A program made the position numbers and the translations under genes. From Eubacteriales bacterium (GTDB taxonomy: Bacteria > Bacillota > Clostridia > Oscillospirales > CAG-272): a stretch of DNA of 64,000 nt. The stretch is from NCBI GenBank assembly GCA_045612715.1, contig JAZKZP010000011.1:2745-66744 (forward strand). Reading direction: 5' to 3'. Positions within the stretch are counted from its first letter, which is position 1. Each line of letters starts with the position of its first letter. Positions 266 through 60,169 of this stretch are shown in pieces. The notes beneath the pieces were generated by a model that was given only the letters and a program-made list of their open reading frames with translations, was not told the origin of the DNA and ran no database searches.

Positions 266-1007
266 AAATTTGCGTAAAACTTTTGACGGTAAAAATGTTC
301 TCAATGGTATAACAACGACTATCAATGAAGGAGAACAGGTTGCTATTATTGGTCCTTCGGGATCCGGCAAATCAACATTTATTCGTTGTATTAACTGTCT
401 TGAAGACCCCGATGATGGAATCATTATGTTTGAAGGAGAAAACATTGCCGATTTTAAGGTGGATATAAATGTTCATCGTCAAAATATGGGAATGGTATTT
501 CAAAACTTCAATCTCTTTAATAACAAAACAGTTCTTGAAAATATCACACTTGCTCCGATACACATTCACGGTAAGAGGATGAAAAAGGAAGGAATGAGCA
601 AAAAGGAAATAGTTGATCACTTTAATGCAAAGGCAATGAAACTTTTGAAGAGAATTGGTCTTGAAGATAAGGCAAATTCATATCCTTTAACTCTTTCCGG
701 TGGACAAAAGCAGAGAATAGCAATTGTTCGAGCCCTTGCTATGGAGCCAAAGATAATTCTTTTTGATGAGCCAACATCGGCTCTTGACCCGGAGATGGTA
801 GGAGAGGTTCTTGGGCTTATGCGTGATCTTGCAAATGAAAAGATGACAATGGTAATTGTTACTCACGAAATGGGATTCGCTCGTGAAGTTGCAAGTAGAG
901 TTATATTTATGAATGATGGTAATATCGCCGCGGACGGCACACCCGACGAAATTTTTGATAACCCAACCCATCCAAGACTTAAAGAATTTTTAAGCAAAAT
1001 CCTTTAA
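252..1007 (+). CDS. Polar amino-acid ABC transporter ATP-binding protein (GlnQ-like)
   Basis: Walker [17 protein letters not shown] signature, [11 protein letters not shown]. Likely GTG start at 252 after AAGGAG. Confidence 0.93.
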
Positions 1008-1034
1008 AATATTTTATAAATTGAATTAATGTTT

Positions 1035-1070
1035 AACAAAAAAGAGAGATTTTTCTCTCTTTTTGTTTTT
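1035..1070 (+). terminator. Intrinsic terminator
   Basis: AAAAAGAGAGA-tttt-TCTCTCTTTTT hairpin followed by a T tract. Confidence 0.75.
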
Positions 1071-1166
1071 TACATTCGAAAATTGCAAAAACCCCTTGAT
1101 TTTATTTGATTTTTATTTTATAATATACTATGTATAGATGTGTATATTTGAAATTGAGGTAAAATT

Positions 1167-1655
1167 ATGGATAGAATTTCAAAAGAGAATTATTATCTCG
1201 ATATAGCGCAAACAGTTGCTGAAAGAAGCACTTGTATGCGCAAAAAATATGGAGCGATTATTGTTAAAAACGATGTTATAATTTCTACTGGATACAACGG
1301 TTCTCCCCGTGGAAGAAAAAATTGCAATGAGCTTCAGTTCTGTATGAGAGAGAAGCTTCAAATTCCTCGTGGTGAAAGATATGAGCTTTGCCGTTCAGTT
1401 CATGCAGAAGCAAATGCTATAATTGCTGCGCCTCGTGACCAAATGCTGGGTGCGACATTGTATATGGCTTGTGTTGACCCTGAAAATGAGGATATTATTG
1501 CTCATACTACGTCTTGTATGATGTGCAAGAAACAGGTTATCAATGCAGGTATTGCTTATGTAGTTGTTCGTGATGATAAAGAAAATTTTCGCGTTATTGA
1601 TGTAAATGAATGGATTGAAAATGATGACTCTTTGTCTGGGGAGTTTGGTTATTAA
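1167..1655 (+). CDS. dCMP deaminase family (ComEB-like) zinc deaminase
   Basis: RSTC, TGYNG, HAEANA and CxxC motifs. Confidence 0.9.
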   Translation: MDRISKENYYLDIAQTVAERSTCMRKKYGAIIVKNDVIISTGYNGSPRGRKNCNELQFCMREKLQIPRGERYELCRSVHAEANAIIAAPRDQMLGATLYMACVDPENEDIIAHTTSCMMCKKQVINAGIAYVVVRDDKENFRVIDVNEWIENDDSLSGEFGY

Positions 1656-1657
1656 TA

Positions 1658-2095
1658 ATGAGAAAAATTATTCTTGCAAAAAAAGAGCATTTACCACTTA
1701 TAGCTGATATAGAACTAAAAGTTTTCGCAGAGCCTTGGAGCGAAAAATCTCTTGAGCTTTGCTTAACAGAAAACGCATTTTGCATTTGTTGTTTTGAAGA
1801 TAATGTACTTGTTTCATATTGTACAGTTATTACGGTGCTTAATGAAGCGCAGATAATAAACGTTGCAACTTCCCCCGAGTATAGAGGCAGGGGTTATGCA
1901 AAAGAGGTGCTCAAAACCCTTGTTTTGGAATGTCAAAATAGAAATATAAACATTATCTCTCTTGAAGTGAGGGAAAGTAATATAGCTGCTATATCACTTT
2001 ATAGTACACTTGATTTTAAAATTGAAGGTAAGCGCAAGGATTTTTACAAAAATCCAAGAGAAAATGCGCTGATTATGATTAAAAATTTAGATTAG
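1658..2095 (+). CDS. rimI: Ribosomal-protein-alanine N-acetyltransferase (GNAT)
   Basis: EPWS, YRGRGYA, LEVRESN, KRKDFY..PRENA motifs; adjacent to tsaD. Confidence 0.88.
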   Translation: MRKIILAKKEHLPLIADIELKVFAEPWSEKSLELCLTENAFCICCFEDNVLVSYCTVITVLNEAQIINVATSPEYRGRGYAKEVLKTLVLECQNRNINIISLEVRESNIAAISLYSTLDFKIEGKRKDFYKNPRENALIMIKNLD

Positions 2096-2105
2096 GAAGT
2101 TATTT

Positions 2106-3119
2106 ATGTACATTTTAGGAATGGAAAGCTCATGTGATGAAACATCGGCTTCCGTAGTTGAAATAATAGATGAAAAGCCATATATTCGTTCAAATATTGT
2201 GGCATCTCAAATAGATATTCACCGCCTTTATGGTGGTGTTGTACCCGAAATAGCGAGTAGAGCACACATTGAAGCTGTTTCGCGTATTACTCATGAAGCG
2301 CTTGACGAAGCGGGAATAACGCTTTCAGACCTCGGTGCTATTGCGGTAACGTCATCACCAGGACTTATAGGCGCACTTTTGGTAGGGGTTAATTTTGCTA
2401 AAAGCTTGGCTTTTGCTAATAATATTCCACTTGTTCCTGTTGACCATATTAAAGGTCACGTTGCGGCTGCATATTTTGCAGAACCCGATTTAAAGCCACC
2501 GTTTTTAGCTCTTGTTGTTTCAGGTGGACATACCTCTATTTATCACATTCGTGATTATGCTGATTTTGACGAGCTTGGCACAACGCGTGATGACGCGGCA
2601 GGTGAAGCCTTTGACAAAATTGCAAGAGTTATGGGAATGCCGTATCCGGGAGGAGCTGCTCTTGATAAGCTTGCTTACGAGGGTGATCCTAAGGCAATAA
2701 AATTTCCATCTCCCGCATTGCTTGGAGATAACCTTGATTTTTCTTTTAGCGGACTTAAAACCTCAGCCCTTAACTATATTAATAGTAACACGCAAAAAGG
2801 AATAGAAATAAGCTATGCCGATGTGGCAGCATCATATACCGATTGTGTTGTTAAGGGTATATGTTCTAAGGTTGAAAAAGCACTTGAAAAGAGTGGTGCA
2901 ACAACTTTTGCTATTTCAGGTGGAGTTGCAGCAAATTCACATCTTCGTTCAGCACTTGCTCGACTTTGTGAAAAGAAGGAAATTAAGTTTGCAATGCCCG
3001 ACCGTTCTCTTTGTGGAGATAACGGAGCTATGATAGCTTTGGCGGGATATTACGAATATAAAAAAGGCAATTTTGCAGATACTTATTTGAATGCAAGCGC
3101 CTATTCTCCCCTTGATTAA
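2106..3119 (+). CDS. tsaD: tRNA N6-adenosine threonylcarbamoyltransferase
   Basis: ESSCDET, GGVVPEIASRAH, HIKGH, SGGHT, DDAAGEAFDK, FSFSGLKT, DNGAMIA. Confidence 0.97.
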   Translation: MYILGMESSCDETSASVVEIIDEKPYIRSNIVASQIDIHRLYGGVVPEIASRAHIEAVSRITHEALDEAGITLSDLGAIAVTSSPGLIGALLVGVNFAKSLAFANNIPLVPVDHIKGHVAAAYFAEPDLKPPFLALVVSGGHTSIYHIRDYADFDELGTTRDDAAGEAFDKIARVMGMPYPGGAALDKLAYEGDPKAIKFPSPALLGDNLDFSFSGLKTSALNYINSNTQKGIEISYADVAASYTDCVVKGICSKVEKALEKSGATTFAISGGVAANSHLRSALARLCEKKEIKFAMPDRSLCGDNGAMIALAGYYEYKKGNFADTYLNASAYSPLD

Positions 3120-42389: not shown

Positions 42390-44819
42390 ATGTTTAATGT
42401 TAATGAAATTATGAAAAGATTGACACTGGAAGAAAAGGCTTGTCTTCTTTCAGGACATAAATCTTGGCACACAAATAAAGTAACTCGAGTTGGATTACCC
42501 TCTATCTTTTTAACTGATGGTCCTCACGGACTTAGAAAGAAAAAAGAGGGAGATAAGGTTGCAGGCCTTGGACAAACCGAGCTTTCCACTTGTTTTCCGG
42601 CTGCTTGTACCACAGGTAGCTCTTGGAACAAAGAATTGCTTTATAAAATGGGTACCGCAATGGGAGAAGAGTGCCGTTATTATAACGTAAATCTCATACT
42701 TGGTCCTGCTGTTAACATAAAAAGAAATCCCCTTTGTGGAAGAAACTTTGAATATTTCAGCGAAGATCCCCTCATCGCAGGTAAACTTGGCGCCCGTCTT
42801 ACACGTGGTATTGAAGATATGGGTGTTGGAACAAGTGTAAAGCACTATGCTTGCAACAATAACGAAAAAAATCGTTATTTTGGTGACTCAATTGTTGATG
42901 ATAGAGCATATCGTGAAATTTATCTTAAAGCATTTGAACCAATTATTAAAGAGGGAAAACCTCAGACAGTGATGTGCGCTTACAATAAAGTAAATGGCGT
43001 ATATGCAAGTGAAAATCCTCAACTTCTTAATGGAGTGCTCCGCGATGATTGGGGATTTGAAGGGCTTGTTATGTCCGACTGGGGCGCAGTAAATGATAGA
43101 GTTAATGGCTTAAAAGCAGGACTTGATCTTGAAATGCCCGGTGATATTGGACATAACCGTCAAGTTATTATTGATGCGGTTAATGATGGAAGCTTACCCA
43201 TAGAAGTTGTAAATAAATCTGTAAGACGAGTATTAAATATGATTTATAATACTTCACTTGCTACCGAAAAGATTCCTGCAAAATTTGATGAACACGCAAG
43301 CCTTGCTAAGGAGCTTGCCATTGATAGTGCAGTTCTTTTGAAGAATAACAATAACATTTTGCCTCTTTCTGAAGATAAAAAATATCTTATTATTGGTGAA
43401 ATGTTTGAGAAAATGCGCTATCAAGGAGCTGGCTCATCACTCCTTCGCCCATATAAACTCACCACACCAAAAGATGCATTCGATGAGCATAATATAATCT
43501 TTGATTATGAAAAAGGATATAAGATCAATTCCTTTGACGATGATTATTCACTTATAGAAAGTGCAATGTTGAAAGCAGAAAAATGCGATACGATTATTTT
43601 CTTTGGCGGATTATCAGAGTATGCCGAAAGTGAAGGATTTGATAGAGAATCTCTCTTACTTCCACAAAATCAGTTAAATCTTATTAATAAATTATCCAAA
43701 TTTAATAAGAAAATTGTTTTTGTTATGTACGGTGGTAGCCCAATAGAAATGTCATTTGATGCTTCAGTTGATGCAATACTAAATATGTATCTTCCAGGTG
43801 AAGAGGGTGGAGAAGCAACATACGAACTTCTTTTTGGCAAATCCAATCCATCCGGTCGTCTTTGCGAAACTTGGCCATTGAGATACGAGGATGTACCTTT
43901 CTATAATGAATTTACCGCTACAACTAATGATCGATATAAAGAAAGTATTTTTGTTGGTTATAGATATTATTCTACCTTTGGTGTACCTGTGAAATATCCA
44001 TTTGGATACGGTCTTTCATATACAGATTTCTCATACAGCAATATGAGAGTTGATAAGGGAGATAAAATCTATAAGGTGTATGTTGACGTTAAAAATATAG
44101 GTTCTAGAGCTGGTTCTACTGTTCTTGAACTTTTCGTTGAAGCTCCAAAGACAAATGTTGTCAAGCCATTGCGTGAACTTCGTGGATTTGAAAAGATTCA
44201 TCTTGAAGCTGGAGAAACTAAAACAGCCTGTATAGAAATCCCTGTTGAAAGTTTGAAATACTATATTAACGGCAAGTGGTCACTTGAAAATGGTACATAC
44301 ATCTTCCACCTTTGTTCTGATGTAAATACGGTTCTTTTATCTTCAAGAATAGCAGTAGAAGACGGTGAAGCAATTCAAGAAAATAATATTTATTCAAGAC
44401 TTTATAATGTTACAAAAGAAAAATTCTTGAGTATGACTGATCTTCATTTTGATAAACTTATTGGCAGAAGAATTGAAGCGCCCGTTGTAAAGAGACCATA
44501 TGACCTCAATACACCCATAAGAGAATACAAAACCTTCGGTGGCAAGTTTATATATGGAGCAATAATGTTTGCTTTCAAGTGTATTTATAACCTTGAATTA
44601 AAATCTAAGGATTCTCCTGATAAAGAAACAAAGGTTAAAAATGCTTACTTTGGTTGGCAGATAATGAAGACAATGAGCTTGCGTTCAATGTCCTATGCAA
44701 GTGAGGGAATGCTTTCTCACACTATGGCGTGGGCACTTGTAGATATTGCAAACAATAGACCTATCAAAGCTATTGTTAGATTGATCAAGGGCGAAAAATG
44801 TGTTAAACTTCCCGAATAA
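42390..44819 (+). CDS. GH3 beta-glucosidase
   Basis: DGPHGLR, RNFEYFSEDP, KHYACNN, MSDWG, FVGYRYY, PFGYGLSYT, Fn3-like domain. Confidence 0.95.
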   Translation: MFNVNEIMKRLTLEEKACLLSGHKSWHTNKVTRVGLPSIFLTDGPHGLRKKKEGDKVAGLGQTELSTCFPAACTTGSSWNKELLYKMGTAMGEECRYYNVNLILGPAVNIKRNPLCGRNFEYFSEDPLIAGKLGARLTRGIEDMGVGTSVKHYACNNNEKNRYFGDSIVDDRAYREIYLKAFEPIIKEGKPQTVMCAYNKVNGVYASENPQLLNGVLRDDWGFEGLVMSDWGAVNDRVNGLKAGLDLEMPGDIGHNRQVIIDAVNDGSLPIEVVNKSVRRVLNMIYNTSLATEKIPAKFDEHASLAKELAIDSAVLLKNNNNILPLSEDKKYLIIGEMFEKMRYQGAGSSLLRPYKLTTPKDAFDEHNIIFDYEKGYKINSFDDDYSLIESAMLKAEKCDTIIFFGGLSEYAESEGFDRESLLLPQNQLNLINKLSKFNKKIVFVMYGGSPIEMSFDASVDAILNMYLPGEEGGEATYELLFGKSNPSGRLCETWPLRYEDVPFYNEFTATTNDRYKESIFVGYRYYSTFGVPVKYPFGYGLSYTDFSYSNMRVDKGDKIYKVYVDVKNIGSRAGSTVLELFVEAPKTNVVKPLRELRGFEKIHLEAGETKTACIEIPVESLKYYINGKWSLENGTYIFHLCSDVNTVLLSSRIAVEDGEAIQENNIYSRLYNVTKEKFLSMTDLHFDKLIGRRIEAPVVKRPYDLNTPIREYKTFGGKFIYGAIMFAFKCIYNLELKSKDSPDKETKVKNAYFGWQIMKTMSLRSMSYASEGMLSHTMAWALVDIANNRPIKAIVRLIKGEKCVKLPE

Positions 44820-46903: not shown

Positions 46904-49483
46904 TTATTCTTGTTTTTCCACCAATTTCTTAACAAAATCAGTAATTTCATTACCAATTGTAATAAGCTCATCAACAAACTCTTTAATTGTCATTCGTGAA
47001 ATGCCCGAATGAACAGCTGCAAACTGAACTAGTCTGTCACCTGTGACAACTCTGATTTTGTAGTTAGGACCAAGCTCGTGCATCATTCTTTCAATATATG
47101 CGTCGGCAGTTTGATTTTCCTTCGTGAATACTACCTTATATCCATCACGTTCAAATTCAGAGCCAACACCTTCTTTTACAAGATAAGCATCAAAAACGAG
47201 TACCAAATTTTCCTTGGTAAATGCAACATAGTTGCTTAGAATATCCATAAGTGTTTCTCGAGCCTTTTCAAGTGAATAATCGGATATTTCTTTTAATGAA
47301 TCCCAAGCGTAGATAAGATTGTATCCGTCAATGATTATCATGCTTTCTTGCTTGATTTGTAGCTTTTTATTCGGCTTTGATTTGCCTGCGGAAATGACCT
47401 TCGGCTCACTATATTTTTTACGTCTTATAGGACCGAATGTACGCATCATAATTGCCTCAACCTCTTCGTCAGAAAGAGAGTAATTTTTGGCAAGTGAAGC
47501 CACTCTCGGAATAACTGTAACCGTATTTTGAGAAAGGGAAATACCCGCATCAAGATGCTTGTATTGTTCGACTTCGCGCCAATTTACCACAAATCCAGCG
47601 CCGTGAGCACAGAAAACAGAGTGAGGTGAATTGTCCATATCACTTTCGGGGTCATAACCTTTTTGCGCCACTATCTCGTCTTTATTGTGACACTCATCAT
47701 ATCCGTCGCTAACACAAGTAAGTCGCCCAATGCCTCGTGTATAAGAGATTACTTCACTAATGTAATCGTGAAGAGTAGCAACAGGGGCGCGTCCTACAAT
47801 ATTTGTAAAATCCTCGCTCGTGCTTTCAATTTCAAATTCAGCAGATCGCATCTGCAAATCGTTCATAGCACGACCAACCAAAGGGGAGGGAATTTCAAGT
47901 CTAAATTTGTAATACGGCTCAAGTAATGTGCAACCACCAACCATAAGTCCGTGACGAACAGCACGCAAGGTAGCCTCACGAAAATCTCCACCCTCGGTGT
48001 GTTTAAGATGTGACTTGCCTGCCACCAAAGTAAGCTTTGTGTCGGTTAAGAGCGCACCTGTAAGCACACCACGGTGATTTTTCTCATATAAATGTGATAA
48101 AATAAGGCGTTGCCAATTAGTTGCAAGCATATTTTCGGGAATTTTTGTGTCAAATATAAGTCCCGTCCCTTTGGGTTGCGGTTCAAGTAAGAGTTGTACC
48201 TCTGCATAATGTCTTAACGGTTCAAAATGCCCAATACCAATAGCTTTATTAGTGATTCTTTCTTTATAAAGAATATTTCCCGCACCGAATTGACATTCAA
48301 TATTAAACCTATCAAAAATCAATCTTTTTAAAAGATCAATTTGTATCTCACCCATAAGACGCGCTTCGATTTGCGATAGCTCATCATTCCAAAATAGGTG
48401 TAGTGATGGTTCTTCCTCCTCAAGCTCTTTAAGTTTTGGAAAATAAAGATTTTGGTCGCATCCGTCGGGGAGTATTATTCTATACGATAACACCGGTTCA
48501 AGCAAGGGCTTGCAGGTGTCACTTTCAATTCCAAGTCCTTGACCTGCATAGGTGGACGAAAGCCCAATTACAGCACAAATTTCACCTGCGTTTGCAGATT
48601 CAATCTGCTCAAATTTATCTCCCGAATAAAGACGAAGCTGGCTGACTTTTTCAATAATATGCTTACCATCTGCTGATAAATAAGAAATTTCATCCCTTGC
48701 CGAAAGACTTCCGCTTGTTATCTTCATATAAGAGAGTCGAGTATTTCCTGCACGTGAAATTTTATAAACCTTTGCTCCAAATTTATCTTGTTCATAGAGT
48801 GGCGAAAGGGAATATTTATCTATAGTTTCAAGTAAGAAATCAATCCCCGACATTCTGAGAGCTGAGCCAAAAATAATGGGGAATAAAGCTCTATCCGAAA
48901 TAAGAGTTGCAATATCGCCGTCATCTATGGGTTCTTCAGCAAGATAATTCTCTAAAAAAGCTTCATTTACCAGAGCCAATTTTTCATCAAGATCGTGCTT
49001 TGATTGTGTATCGTAAAAAGCAACGCATTTTGAAGAAAGAACGGAAAGAATTTCATCCTCTTGCTCATCCTTAGTTTTTATTGCTATATCACTTTTATTA
49101 ACAAAAATAAAGGTCGGCACATTATAAAATTCAAGCAAATTCCAAAGCGTGCGTGTGTGATTTTGCACTCCATCTGAAGCACTTATAACGAGAATAGCAT
49201 AATCCAAAAGGGAAAGCACTCTTTCGGTTTCTGCGGAGAAATCGACGTGACCGGGTGTGTCAAGGAGAATAAAATCGCAGTTTTCACTCGAAAAACGAGC
49301 CTGCTTTGAAAAAATAGTTATACCGCGCTCGCGCTCAACTGCATTGGTGTCAAGAAAAGTATTTTTATGGTCCACTCTACCGAGCGTACGAATCTTGCCC
49401 GAAATATAGAGTAACGCCTCAGAAAGAGTAGTTTTTCCTGCATCAACGTGAGCTAAAATACCGATAGTTAACTTCTTTTTCAT
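46904..49483 (-). CDS. TetM/EF-G-like translational GTPase fused to C-terminal NYN (YacP/Rae1-like) RNase domain
   Basis: AHVDAGKTT, RGITI, DTPGH, NKSD, LLEPY; C-terminal IIDGYN, VFDAY, TADAYIE, VVTGD. Confidence 0.88.
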   Translation of the reverse strand: MKKKLTIGILAHVDAGKTTLSEALLYISGKIRTLGRVDHKNTFLDTNAVERERGITIFSKQARFSSENCDFILLDTPGHVDFSAETERVLSLLDYAILVISASDGVQNHTRTLWNLLEFYNVPTFIFVNKSDIAIKTKDEQEDEILSVLSSKCVAFYDTQSKHDLDEKLALVNEAFLENYLAEEPIDDGDIATLISDRALFPIIFGSALRMSGIDFLLETIDKYSLSPLYEQDKFGAKVYKISRAGNTRLSYMKITSGSLSARDEISYLSADGKHIIEKVSQLRLYSGDKFEQIESANAGEICAVIGLSSTYAGQGLGIESDTCKPLLEPVLSYRIILPDGCDQNLYFPKLKELEEEEPSLHLFWNDELSQIEARLMGEIQIDLLKRLIFDRFNIECQFGAGNILYKERITNKAIGIGHFEPLRHYAEVQLLLEPQPKGTGLIFDTKIPENMLATNWQRLILSHLYEKNHRGVLTGALLTDTKLTLVAGKSHLKHTEGGDFREATLRAVRHGLMVGGCTLLEPYYKFRLEIPSPLVGRAMNDLQMRSAEFEIESTSEDFTNIVGRAPVATLHDYISEVISYTRGIGRLTCVSDGYDECHNKDEIVAQKGYDPESDMDNSPHSVFCAHGAGFVVNWREVEQYKHLDAGISLSQNTVTVIPRVASLAKNYSLSDEEVEAIMMRTFGPIRRKKYSEPKVISAGKSKPNKKLQIKQESMIIIDGYNLIYAWDSLKEISDYSLEKARETLMDILSNYVAFTKENLVLVFDAYLVKEGVGSEFERDGYKVVFTKENQTADAYIERMMHELGPNYKIRVVTGDRLVQFAAVHSGISRMTIKEFVDELITIGNEITDFVKKLVEKQE

Positions 49484-52257: not shown

Positions 52258-53913
52258 TTAAAAATATTTTTTGTTGAGGATAGTGTATGCAGCCCAAATA
52301 ACAGATACATCTACTGTGACTACGGGTAACGCTCCAAAAACATTCGAGTCTGCATTTATGTTTTCAACTTCATCGTTGTACTGAGTAACGATAGTTATCA
52401 AAATATCGTATTTAGAGCTGAGCGATTTCTTGTCATCTGCAGAAAGGCTGTTGTAAATGTTGATTGCTTCGCAAATCTTATTGTATTTATTCTGACCTAT
52501 ATAACGTCCTGAAGCAAGGGAAGTGATGATGTTAGAAAAATCTTCCTTTGTGTATGTGGGGGCGTTGGGATCTTTCGCACCGCAATTTGAACATGTGCTG
52601 CCAACGTATGTGTGAGCTACAATGTTTGTATAAGAATCAATGTAGTATTCACCGCAATCGCACGTGTGAGTGGTATAACCCTTTTCCGTACAAGTGGGTG
52701 CAGTTACTGTCGAAGTATAGGTGTGATTATGTCCAACAAGAGGAATGGTCACAGTTTCAGTATAGTCGCATCTTGAGCAATCTCTATGTTTGGAACCTTT
52801 TGTTGTTTCAGTAGCTTCAACATCAATAACCCAATTTCCTAAGGAGTGACCAAGCTTATCAACTGTTTCGGTTTTAGTATGTTTACAGTTTGAGCATGTA
52901 TATGTTGTAGAACCACCACTTGTGCAAGTGGCCTGTGTACTTGAAGTAACACTAAAGTTATGGTCACAAGCGCCCTCGCTCGCTTCACCGGAGGGAGTTA
53001 CCATATCAGAAGGAACTTCCTTGCCAAAAATGAGCCAAGCGTATTCGGGATAGTCAATAAATACGTTTCTATTGCCCTGAATATCTTGAATTACTTCGTT
53101 TCTGCCAAGCTCCCATGTATCAACAGGGTCAAGCTCCATCCAAGCAAGAAGAACATCAACGCTTTGGAATACTTCAGTAATAGAGTCAGCACCCCATGCG
53201 GAACCCCATCTTATCCAAACATAAAGACAGATTCTTGCAACGTCACCTTTAACATTGTCAAGGGGCTCGAAATATGAACCACCTGAATATCCACCAAGAC
53301 AACCTGATGCAGGAGTTCTTCCGTAAACTGCCTTGCCTCCGGAAACATTGCCGTATTTATCGTTGCTGCGAGTACTGTTAACAACAGCATCAGAAGGACG
53401 GATGTGATGCATATCAGCACCGCCCCCGCTTGTGTTATTTCCGCCAAGAGATTTAGGCCAAACGTGTTCACGGTTCCAACCGTTCCATTGGCTCTGAGTT
53501 GCAGTATAGCTTGTGTAAATCAAAGAGAGCTTGTTGCTTGAACCTGTTTCATTTTCACAGTCAGTACGATGAGCTTTATAATGGCAATCGTCATATGAGG
53601 AAATGTAGGTATGTGTGCTCTTCATAAGAGTAGCGAGTGCGTTTTTAATTTCATTAGCACTCTTTTCTGAAAGCACATCATATTCATTGTTTCCATTATA
53701 ATATGCATCTGCACTTGTTCCGTTAAGAGTTGTTGCTACAACATCACGTTGTCCTGAGTTGTATTGAGACGAGTACTTTGACGGTTGTCCCGCAGCCTGA
53801 TGTATATCAACGGAAACATCAATAGGTGTAATTGCAAAAGCGGTAACAGCCGTTGACTGAAGCACCATAAGAAGCATCAGAAACAATGCTAGTAATTTAA
53901 ATTGTGTTTTCAT
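52258..53913 (-). CDS. Secreted endonuclease I/Bsn-family (His-Me) nuclease with Cys/His repeats and C-terminal hydrophobic tail
   Basis: Signal peptide; WNREHVWPKS, DMHHIRP, VNSTRSN, KGDVAR, QGNRN.FID.P. Confidence 0.9.
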   Translation of the reverse strand: MKTQFKLLALFLMLLMVLQSTAVTAFAITPIDVSVDIHQAAGQPSKYSSQYNSGQRDVVATTLNGTSADAYYNGNNEYDVLSEKSANEIKNALATLMKSTHTYISSYDDCHYKAHRTDCENETGSSNKLSLIYTSYTATQSQWNGWNREHVWPKSLGGNNTSGGGADMHHIRPSDAVVNSTRSNDKYGNVSGGKAVYGRTPASGCLGGYSGGSYFEPLDNVKGDVARICLYVWIRWGSAWGADSITEVFQSVDVLLAWMELDPVDTWELGRNEVIQDIQGNRNVFIDYPEYAWLIFGKEVPSDMVTPSGEASEGACDHNFSVTSSTQATCTSGGSTTYTCSNCKHTKTETVDKLGHSLGNWVIDVEATETTKGSKHRDCSRCDYTETVTIPLVGHNHTYTSTVTAPTCTEKGYTTHTCDCGEYYIDSYTNIVAHTYVGSTCSNCGAKDPNAPTYTKEDFSNIITSLASGRYIGQNKYNKICEAINIYNSLSADDKKSLSSKYDILITIVTQYNDEVENINADSNVFGALPVVTVDVSVIWAAYTILNKKYF

Positions 53914-54152
53914 AGTAAACCTCCGTTTACACAAATTTTGTCATTTTAATTATAACATAAAAAATTGCTAAAGAAAAGACCTTTTTCGAAATTTGTTAAA
54001 TTTTGTTTATATTACATAGTAAATAGCCTATAATATCCTTAAATTGTTCTTTTTTAAATGATTTTATTACATATTTTTTGAATATATATTGAATAAAAAA
54101 TTGGCTTGTGATATAATTAATTAAAATATACCTTAAGTTTGGAGGTAATCAA

Positions 54153-58308: not shown

Positions 58309-58425
58309 AAAATTCACCTTCTTTTAACAAATTATAACACAATTTTTATAAATTTTCAATAATTATTGCAATTTCATAATAAAAGTGCTAAAATAAAACT
58401 ATATTACATAATTAAGGAGTTTTTT

Positions 58426-59598
58426 ATGAAAGAAATCATTCAAGGTAAACTCAATAGGGTATTAATCACATTTATCATACTGGTTGGTGCATTTTTGGGC
58501 ATAACGTCTATAGGGTATATAATTGAAGTAGAATTACTTAACGAGCTTAGCTATTCCTATCTAGACTATCTTTTGTATCTTCTTGGTTACGGTAGTATAG
58601 ATGATTCAAACATTTGGTTTAAGGTTGTATTCTCAATAAGCAGTTTATTTGTGCTGACGCTTTTTTCCTCTGCATGTACTGTAACTTGGTTGGAGTCAAG
58701 AAGAACACTGAAAATTGATGATAGTATATCAATAGAAAAGGACGCAAACGGAGATTATATAGCCAATGTTTGCTTAAGAAGTAAAGCGCAATCTATTTAT
58801 GGTGCTAAGGTTGCCGTGATAATAAATGTTGAGAGCGAGTCCTTTTCTGAAGAAGCGAAAATTGCGTATATTCCCCGAAAAAGCTATAGATATGCCAAGT
58901 TCAAGATTGGCTTAAATTCGGTTTTCTATAAGCATTTTAAAGAAATACTTGAAAATAGACAAGAGGGAACTGAACTCGTTGTGGCAATTACATATTCTGA
59001 CGTTCTTTCTGGCGAAGAATATACCGTTTTCAAAAAGTACACGTACGCAAATTTAAAGAAAAAGCACCCGGATTTCGTGTTTGGCACAAAAGATAAAACT
59101 GATACCTTGTTGAAATCTGAATTTGAAAAATATATTACCGCAAATCATATTGATATAAATTTGAGCAATGCAAAGATTATTGATAGTAAAAGTCCCGAAA
59201 GATATTCTCCCGAGCCACAGAACGCATTCAGCGTCTGCTTTGAAGCCGAAAAAGAATATAATGGCGGAGATTTTCAGATGTTTTGCATTCCAATTGACAT
59301 AAATGACGATTGGGGAGTTTATTACGATATGGGTGCGCATCTTTATATCGAACTAGATACGATTAATGATATAAATGTTTTTGTTGAGATAAAAAATGAT
59401 GACGGAAGAACGGTAAATATTCTTGAAAATACCAAACTTAACTCGGATAATAGAATACTTGAAATTGATATGACGAGATACAGACGTCACACTTGGGAAA
59501 ATATGAAAGAGGTCTGCTTTACAGTATTCTTCTCTCACGTTAGAGATGAGAATAAAAAAGCAGAGTTTACAATAAAGGAATGTGCATTCCACATATAA
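58426..59598 (+). CDS. Divergent inward-rectifier (Kir/KirBac-like) 2-TM channel with extra C-terminal beta-sandwich domain
   Basis: TM1-short helix-GYG-TM2, then Kir-like cytoplasmic motifs (KIGLNSVFY, ELVVAITYSDVLSGEEYTVFKKY). AAGGAG RBS; TTGCAA-17-TAAAAT promoter at 58366-58394. Confidence 0.6.
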   Translation: MKEIIQGKLNRVLITFIILVGAFLGITSIGYIIEVELLNELSYSYLDYLLYLLGYGSIDDSNIWFKVVFSISSLFVLTLFSSACTVTWLESRRTLKIDDSISIEKDANGDYIANVCLRSKAQSIYGAKVAVIINVESESFSEEAKIAYIPRKSYRYAKFKIGLNSVFYKHFKEILENRQEGTELVVAITYSDVLSGEEYTVFKKYTYANLKKKHPDFVFGTKDKTDTLLKSEFEKYITANHIDINLSNAKIIDSKSPERYSPEPQNAFSVCFEAEKEYNGGDFQMFCIPIDINDDWGVYYDMGAHLYIELDTINDINVFVEIKNDDGRTVNILENTKLNSDNRILEIDMTRYRRHTWENMKEVCFTVFFSHVRDENKKAEFTIKECAFHI

Positions 59599-59611: not shown

Positions 59612-60169
59612 ATGAGAAAGAATTTTGGACCAAAATCTTGGCTTTATCCTATGCCCGTGCTTATCGTGGGAACATATGACGAAAACGGAAATCCCAATGC
59701 AATGAATGCCGCTTGGGGTGGGATATATGATACAAATCAAGTTATGGTATGCCTTGCGCACGAACATAAAACTGCTGAAAATATTAAAAAAACAGGTGCT
59801 TTTACATTGAGCTTTGCAACTGCAAAAATGGTTGCCGAATGTGACTACGTTGGCATAGTTTCTGCTAATGACGTACCCGATAAATTTGCCCGTGCGGGTT
59901 TCCACGCAACAAAGAGTAATTTTGTCAATGCTCCCATTATCGCAGAGCTTCCAATGACCGTTGAATGTAATCTTCTTAAATTTAATGAAGACGGAATTTG
60001 TATCGGTGAGATAGTAAATGTTTGCGCTAAAGAAGAAATCCTCAATGAAAAAGGTCAGATAGACGCAAAGAAACTCGACCCCATAACCTATGATAGTTCA
60101 ACTCATACCTATTGGCGCTTAGGTGACGCCGCAGGCAAGGCATTTTCAGATGGGAAGAAGATTAAATGA
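59612..60169 (+). CDS. Flavin reductase / flavoredoxin-like protein
   Basis: YPMPV.IVGTYD..G.PNAM.AAWGG, CDYVGIVS, APII.ELP..VEC. Confidence 0.9.
   Translation: MRKNFGPKSWLYPMPVLIVGTYDENGNPNAMNAAWGGIYDTNQVMVCLAHEHKTAENIKKTGAFTLSFATAKMVAECDYVGIVSANDVPDKFARAGFHATKSNFVNAPIIAELPMTVECNLLKFNEDGICIGEIVNVCAKEEILNEKGQIDAKKLDPITYDSSTHTYWRLGDAAGKAFSDGKKIK

Follow-up and report, generated by a model that had tools for sequence, protein, structure and literature searches.

Channels of the Kir and KirBac type carry an N-terminal cytoplasmic segment with a slide helix before their first transmembrane helix (TM1). The in vivo role of prokaryotic Kir channels is described as unclear in a study on NirBacs, which also reports that these proteins, built like Kir channels but with changed P-loops, assemble into oligomers that conduct without selectivity (PMC4607889). 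With regards to selectivity, a review states that mutation of the S4 threonine to alanine abolishes selectivity in NaK2K and MthK, and that K+ selectivity arises only with four ion sites (PMC12658365). A channel can also act as an effector in phage defence, as stated for HalA of the Hailong system (PMC13434031). What is new here is a Kir-fold family having a family-wide rebuilt filter together with a candidate sensor common to TIR proteins, as encountered in a stretch of 64,000 nucleotides from an Eubacteriales bacterium (the window).

The gene (58426..59598, plus strand) encodes a protein of 390 amino acids that, as judged from its open reading frame, its homologues and analyses with AlphaFold, Foldseek and VIA, would be a Kir-fold channel with a C-terminal jelly roll. 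It is preceded by a ribosome-binding site, AAGGAG (58414..58419, plus strand), seven bases before the ATG, and by a sigma70-like promoter, TTGCAA-17-TG-n-TAAAAT (58366..58394, plus strand), which was found by a consensus scan and is conserved at the empty sites of congeners. A possible upstream TTG start would add 20 residues, but overlaps this promoter. The gene is single-copy in the source assembly (1.76 Mb, 74% complete) and is followed by a flavin reductase-like gene (59612..60169, plus strand; Pfam PF01613, E 7e-17), given here as context only, which synteny identifies as the resident first gene of the recipient operon. Elsewhere in the window, as read by eye, an 859-residue protein (46904-49483, minus strand) resembles a GTPase of TetM/EF-G type that carries an NYN-like domain at its C-terminus, while a second protein, which is secreted (52258-53934, minus strand), resembles endonuclease I with Cys/His repeats.

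The 390-residue protein gave no matches in Pfam, NCBIfam, PADLOC or PHROGs, and a sequence search of the PDB, with the protein either alone or with its close alignment, likewise returned none. No paper describing its architecture was found in a literature search that excluded most subscription journals. A word-index search gave 26 rows, including 24 near-full-length homologues at 41–71% identity, and with an exhaustive search the family came to 54 clusters (at 50% identity) with E<=1e-3, 34 of which have lengths of 370–443 residues; the two named records carrying the family are uncultured ‘Eubacteriales’ and ‘Acutalibacteraceae’ genomes. The order samples drawn for the source assembly and for the Acutalibacteraceae record have a genome in common, which places the source in the same order, Oscillospirales. 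An artefactual reading frame could be rejected on the basis of this conservation, and a frameshift fusion on the basis of the 34 full-length clusters. The alignment used for column counts has 39 rows (these 34 clusters and five others), most of them at 19–32% identity; 20 of the 54 representatives, being shorter than 340 residues, were excluded from it. One protein (P0026) was kept out of the alignments since it matches over the first 97 residues only and then continues into unrelated sequence. Six homologues of 207–232 residues (P0040, P0042, P0044, P0047, P0050 and P0051) end near the end of the Kir domain, and are either real Kir-only forms or broken gene ends. Three profile matches (L013, L050 and L051) were not counted as members because they are Kv-type channels of the ordinary sort, or fragments of one; a weak, off-frame match (L014) was likewise left out. 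The first of these Kv-type genes (L013, 1111-1851) lies between two genes whose products, judged by eye, resemble the beta and alpha subunits of a decarboxylase that pumps Na+.

The AlphaFold model of the 390-residue protein (pLDDT 82.5, pTM 0.66) has helices at residues 2–37, 45–52 and 63–91, followed by beta-domains at approximately 95–205 and 241–389, a three-part fold that is predicted throughout. An earlier note, made from the sequence alone, had proposed TM1 and TM2 on either side of a filter, and all peptides that it quoted were indeed found in the translation, with two hydrophobic peaks at residues 13–31 (2.15) and 67–85 (1.88) where these helices would be. TM1 (approximately residues 13–33; 58462..58524, plus strand) follows a short K/R-rich, predicted cytoplasmic start, as indicated by hydropathy, the modelled helix 2–37/38 and charge bias. 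The putative pore helix, at residues 45–52 (58558..58581, plus strand), comprises eight residues in both models, and TM2 spans residues 63–91 (58612..58698, plus strand) according to model, column counts and charge bias. Within TM2, Gly/Ser73, aligned with a glycine of the control channels, is kept in 38/39 sequences, Ser81 and Ser82 are kept as well, and Thr85 is invariant. Charged residues (K+R versus D+E) average 2.7 versus 0.3 ahead of TM1, 0.9 versus 4.6 within the loop and 2.6 versus 1.5 beyond TM2, a bias that places both termini inside, so the jelly roll is predicted to be cytoplasmic.

When only the pore (residues 1–98) was modelled, the same arrangement was obtained (pLDDT 76.5; helices at 2–38, 45–52 and 63–95). 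All of the top 24 VIA rows for this model were P-loop channels, with Z 7.8–9.2, which is below the mark of about 13 that the tool gives for helical bundles, and so were all 41 Foldseek rows shown, none of which had E<=1e-3. Searched against the PDB, the 39-sequence profile gave 11 matches, ten of them K+ channel pores and all weak (best KvLm, E 0.012), and profile–profile comparison with hhalign gave 95.8% against seven natural K+ pores. Model and profiles agree in this manner on the P-loop module of a helix, a re-entrant pore helix, a filter and a second helix. A tetramer prediction of residues 1–236 reached a median score of 0.39 against the mark of 0.42, with controls at 0.00, and was counted neither for nor against a four-fold assembly.

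The filter reads L-L-G-Y-G-S (58579..58596, plus strand) and, by column counts and comparison with control pores, has Leu52 at the position of the S4 threonine. Its GYG, located by the earlier note at 58585-58593, was confirmed as GGTTACGGT, encoding Gly54-Tyr55-Gly56. LLGYG is unchanged in 25/25 close homologues, and in the wider alignment G54 is found in 39/39, Y55 in 37/39, G56 in 31/39 and D/E57 in 32/39 sequences. The third filter residue varies in eight of the 39 (E, S, A, N or T), and in one protein (P0073) the filter tyrosine is absent altogether. At the S4 column there is Leu in 21 rows, Ile in 10, Val, Met and Thr in two each, and Trp and Phe in one each. Nine Ion_trans_2 pores of related genomes served as controls and had Thr at this position in 9/9 cases, but were picked with a Pfam model that has its own preference for Thr; all nine also had an S/T/N cap at -16 from the filter glycine, the counterpart of which sits at -10 in the present family. 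A gap of six residues just before the filter was placed by HMMER (against KCNQ1), by hhalign and by one of three MAFFT modes, but not by the other two. The pore helix is accordingly predicted to be short, with about six residues probably lost, although at which end depends on the aligner.

The filter had been called degenerate in the earlier note, which holds for the residues before GYG and for the length of the pore helix but not for GYG itself. Compared with a K+ channel, G-Y/F-G is present, whereas the S4 threonine is replaced by Leu52 here and is retained in 2/39 members, and the full-length pore helix, with its N-cap about 16 residues before the filter glycine, appears to be missing, with the caveat that the placement of the gap is aligner-dependent. 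Given the loss of the S4 threonine and the four-site rule as stated in that review (PMC12658365), poor selectivity would therefore be expected, and the suggestion of a non-selective pore gains support from a threonine loss that, on comparison of the sequences, extends to the whole family.

The next segment, residues 94–237 (58705..59136, plus strand), had been read as the beta-domain of Kir channels, and the structural comparisons bore this out. The cytoplasmic domain of Kir2.1 (1u4f) was the best VIA match to residues 94–240 of the model (Z 10.7, rmsd 2.8, 127 residues aligned), with 3auw at Z 9.1 and the next unrelated fold, of Ig type, at Z 7.5; Kir7.1, GIRK2 and KirBac3.1 could be aligned over the pore plus the cytoplasmic domain. 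In the Foldseek comparison with KirBac that the note had proposed, KirBac3.1 filled the top ranks (best E 8.9e-8) and Kir chains made up most rows. Whole-chain rmsd was 8–16 Å, which means either that the domains are oriented differently or that their orientation in the model is uncertain. In the model the Kir domain directly follows TM2, as it would in a Kir channel. The slide-helix segment before TM1 is, by contrast, lacking in the window protein, the homologues of which begin at the same place as its short N-terminus. At E<=0.1 none of the 39 members matched IRK, IRK_C or Ion_trans_2 of Pfam, and IRK and IRK_C had no match in the source assembly, nor in the control genomes by the same search. 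An ordinary KirBac was rejected as an identification, with both filter and N-terminus differing.

For the C-terminal part, residues 238–390 (59137..59595, plus strand), a jelly roll of CBM11/CIA30 type had been suggested, and VIA gave CBM86 (Z 10.0), CBM11 (9.7), CBM30 (9.5) and 7zkq (9.0), the last being a chain from complex I assembly that we take to be NDUFAF1/CIA30. An Atlas feature search of the same residues returned clusters of ExoP_C, CBM30 and CIA30 at 0.92–0.94. No solved CBM reached E 10 when the 39-sequence profile was searched against the PDB. The likeness to carbohydrate binders is one of predicted fold only, and a corresponding function may or may not follow from it. The residues conserved in 36–39 of the 39 sequences are F283, M285, W296, E321, K323, E362, C364, F365 and T366, with K323 in 39/39, E362 and M285 in 38/39, C364 and T366 in 37/39 and E321 in 36/39; among the aromatic residues W296 is found in 38/39, Y/F299 in 37/39 and F283 in 37/39, and these may or may not make up an aromatic platform in a binding cleft, as in CBMs. 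Going by the alternation of residues along the strands, F283/M285, E321/K323 and E362/C364/T366 probably point outwards, with the core behind them, and would make up a candidate pocket.

When the profile of the alignment was run against 401 genomes, two proteins other than channels were found to carry this domain, and both are TIR fusions: one of 329 residues (L011, E 8e-10, 1486-2475, minus strand) and one of 304 residues (L012, E 2.5e-5, 859-1773, plus strand). A domain profile made from channels only scored them at 39.8 and 24.8 bits, respectively, with 9.4 as the best of 900 shuffles, and hhalign gave 96.2% over 74 columns for the channel domain against the TIR-fused domain. Only the second half of the domain is matched (profile positions 70–155 of 160), with E321, K323 and E362 kept in the TIR-fused domains but M285 and T366 not. 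A third fusion (TIR-TIR; P0077) came from a profile into which the first two had already been built, so it does not count as independent of them, nor was it reported by the channel-only profile. All three are TIR or TIR-TIR proteins ending in a jelly roll that has no Pfam match. The first of them (L011) lies in a run of four genes, with an adjoining FRG gene (PADLOC candidate PDC-S15) and two unannotated genes, which is a candidate defence operon. The channel locus of one genome (G841) and the TIR locus of another (G608) are both situated on islands, in each case downstream of an integrase and upstream of a secreted SH3/Flg_new protein; the two integrases share 61% identity, and the two secreted proteins are homologous. 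As TIR enzymes are capped by a related domain, we regard the jelly roll of the channel as a putative exchangeable sensor.

The spread of the channel gene is patchy. It was found in 0/100 relatives of the source, including 0/22 congeners, in 1/400 genomes of a sample of the order and in 0/398 other scored genomes of a class-wide sample, two genomes of which were unscored; among the relatives of two carriers it occurs in 1/80 and 0/80. Viral contigs, plasmids and the first metagenome scan held no relatives, and all that a fold search among viral proteins returned were beta-sandwiches of a generic kind (rmsd 12–53). In eight congeners the flavin reductase gene, or the ribosome-binding site of that gene, comes within 14–31 unaligned bases after the promoter; the other congeners comprise six more empty sites as determined by coordinates, two sites where a different insert of about 400 bp is present and six that were uninformative. 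Since the promoter directly precedes the flavin reductase gene in congeners, these sequence comparisons show that the channel gene was inserted alone behind a resident promoter. A transposon-borne insert was rejected, with no transposase gene at the site. The two inserts of about 400 bp lie between the YjbR and flavin reductase genes (G002:C48, ~42424-42955; G004:C4, 100443-100951, L033), an interval that may be an insertion hot spot.

The earlier note had also proposed that the neighbourhoods of homologues be surveyed for a metabolic versus a defence context, and the seven channel loci were as follows: one is on a mobile signalling island, two have a metallophosphoesterase gene next to the channel gene and four, including the window, are housekeeping or short. 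None of the seven, several of which are short, lies beside a known defence system or has an adjoining TIR or nucleotidyltransferase gene, three members had no PADLOC match, and no partner gene is common to more than two of the seven loci, with none in the window. On the integrative island a kinase-NB-ARC-TPR gene is directly upstream of the channel homologue; this island (L002, 3512-17239, and L053, 3656-11255; G841:C64) holds resolvase, integrase and DUF5685 genes besides these two, and also encodes an LRR protein of BspA type, a protein with WG repeats and a large SH3/CHAP/Flg_new protein. The metallophosphoesterase genes, of calcineurin-like type, begin 14–19 bases after the channel homologue on two metagenome contigs (L006, 2804-3505; L007, 3606-4313).

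Taken together, we consider that there is about an even chance that the protein is a stand-alone, ligand-gated and poorly selective monovalent-cation channel, in which a Kir-type pore, shut at rest, would be opened through the jelly roll and depolarise the cell. The architecture is well supported as a prediction. Four subunits would form the pore, as in all P-loop channels, and a filter without S4 hydroxyls behind a short pore helix would have fewer than four ion sites, such that Na+ could pass as well as K+. Both soluble domains would lie on the cytoplasmic side, where an intracellular ligand may bind the surface made up of E321, K323, E362, C364, T366, F283 and M285; such binding would move the Kir domain and TM2, open the gate and depolarise the cell. 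The channel would most likely be a stand-alone sensor-effector of stress or infection rather than a route of K+ uptake. The swap with TIR, the patchy spread and the mobility as a lone gene point to such sensing, whereas mostly housekeeping neighbourhoods and the lack of matches to defence models weigh against a defence role, which nonetheless is plausible. A bolder version, which we put forward tentatively and hold to be somewhat doubtful, is that gut Clostridia exchange the jelly roll, as an undescribed intracellular immune sensor, between two lethal outputs, namely a TIR enzyme and a non-selective pore derived from Kir. In that case the gene would amount to a whole abortive-infection system in a single protein, and to the first case of a Kir-fold channel in bacterial defence.

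Most members keep GYG-D/E, the nearest structures of the jelly roll are CBM folds and most loci are housekeeping, as might be expected if the protein were instead a metabolite- or sugar-gated, K+-preferring channel that serves the homeostasis of ions or pH and whose jelly roll binds a sugar or sugar phosphate inside the cell; an Ion_trans_2 K+ channel was, moreover, found neither in the source assembly nor in 54 genomes of its family, as compared with 8/36 other genomes of the order. We nevertheless find this unlikely, with the S4 threonine absent in 37/39 members, a TrkH/KtrB transporter encoded in the source assembly, a very patchy distribution (0/100 relatives; 1/400 in the order) and nearest domain relatives that were found to be TIR fusions and not glycoside hydrolases. 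A short pore helix and the bulky Tyr/Leu before GYG could also be features of a relic pore, which as a non-conducting, channel-derived receptor or scaffold would anchor and oligomerise cytoplasmic domains that bind a protein partner, for example a kinase or phosphatase. The CIA30/NDUFAF1 fold is a protein-binding module, and both the kinase-NB-ARC-TPR gene directly upstream (L002) and the metallophosphoesterase genes directly downstream (L006 and L007) would suit this explanation. It appears rather improbable to us, considering that G54 and T85 are invariant and Y55 near-invariant among sequences only some 20% identical, which is what a functional pore would lead one to expect, and that partner genes are common to at most two of the seven loci, with none in the window.

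The domain common to TIR proteins could alternatively mean that the channel is a second-messenger-gated immune effector whose signal would have to be made by another enzyme, a TIR, cyclase or nucleotidyltransferase with its gene at a different site. Hailong HalA would be the model for this, as a precedent of a tetrameric channel effector (PMC13434031), and its pore was matched at Z 7.6. With no TIR or nucleotidyltransferase gene adjoining the channel at any of the seven loci, several of them short, no TIR_2 gene found in the 74%-complete source assembly and a gene that evidently arrived alone, we give this only a slim chance. The link of the domain to TIR enzymes would indicate an unknown intracellular signal in uncultured gut bacteria. 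Natural Kir-fold pores that have GYG but neither the S4 threonine nor the whole of the pore helix would also make the four-site rule of K+ selectivity testable in evolved rather than engineered proteins, and a candidate ligand-binding domain is now seen on a prokaryotic Kir.

With regards to known systems, the jelly roll shares the galactose-binding-like fold of CBM86, CBM11, CBM30, CBM15, ExoP_C and CIA30-NDUFAF1 (Z 8.6–10.0, rmsd 3.0–3.8, 119–136 residues aligned), but has 6–10% identity to these and a conserved set, E/K/E/C/T/M, unlike theirs, and is predicted to be cytoplasmic, on a pore (on TIR in its relatives) and not on a glycoside hydrolase. HalA of the Hailong system is summarised as a ligand-controlled tetrameric bacterial channel that depolarises the cell (PMC13434031), with a weak pore match here (Z 7.6, rank 31). 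According to the same source, HalA requires the HalB nucleotidyltransferase and is kept shut by oligo-dA (PMC13434031), whereas no such partner was seen at the channel loci, and the window protein's domains in the cytoplasm are Kir- and CBM-like. As in KirBac3.1, Kir2.1, GIRK2 and Kir7.1, a predicted two-helix pore with a retained GYG precedes a cytoplasmic beta-domain, but the identity to KirBac3.1 and Kir is 8–15%, the window family is without the S4 threonine and has a short pore helix and an extra jelly roll of 150 residues, and only about ten residues precede TM1 where residue 10 of the model aligns to residue 44 of KirBac3.1. NirBac1.1, 1.2 and 2.1 share the Kir architecture and a non-canonical P-loop, and NirBac1.1 and 1.2 were measured as non-selective (PMC4607889). 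These proteins, from Anaeromyxobacter and Gemmatimonas, are there described as about 35% identical to a KirBac, with unrelated P-loops or TTGTD (PMC4607889), as compared with 10–15% identity to KirBac chains in structural alignments for the window protein. No added domain is described for them in the accessible part of the report (PMC4607889), whereas in the window family GYG is retained, the threonine is gone and a further domain is present. Because the S4 threonine is missing and the identity falls short of the NirBac level, we place the window protein in neither the K+ channels nor the NirBacs; in its working it is nonetheless likely to be akin to NirBac, by analogy, as a channel of Kir architecture with an altered P-loop.
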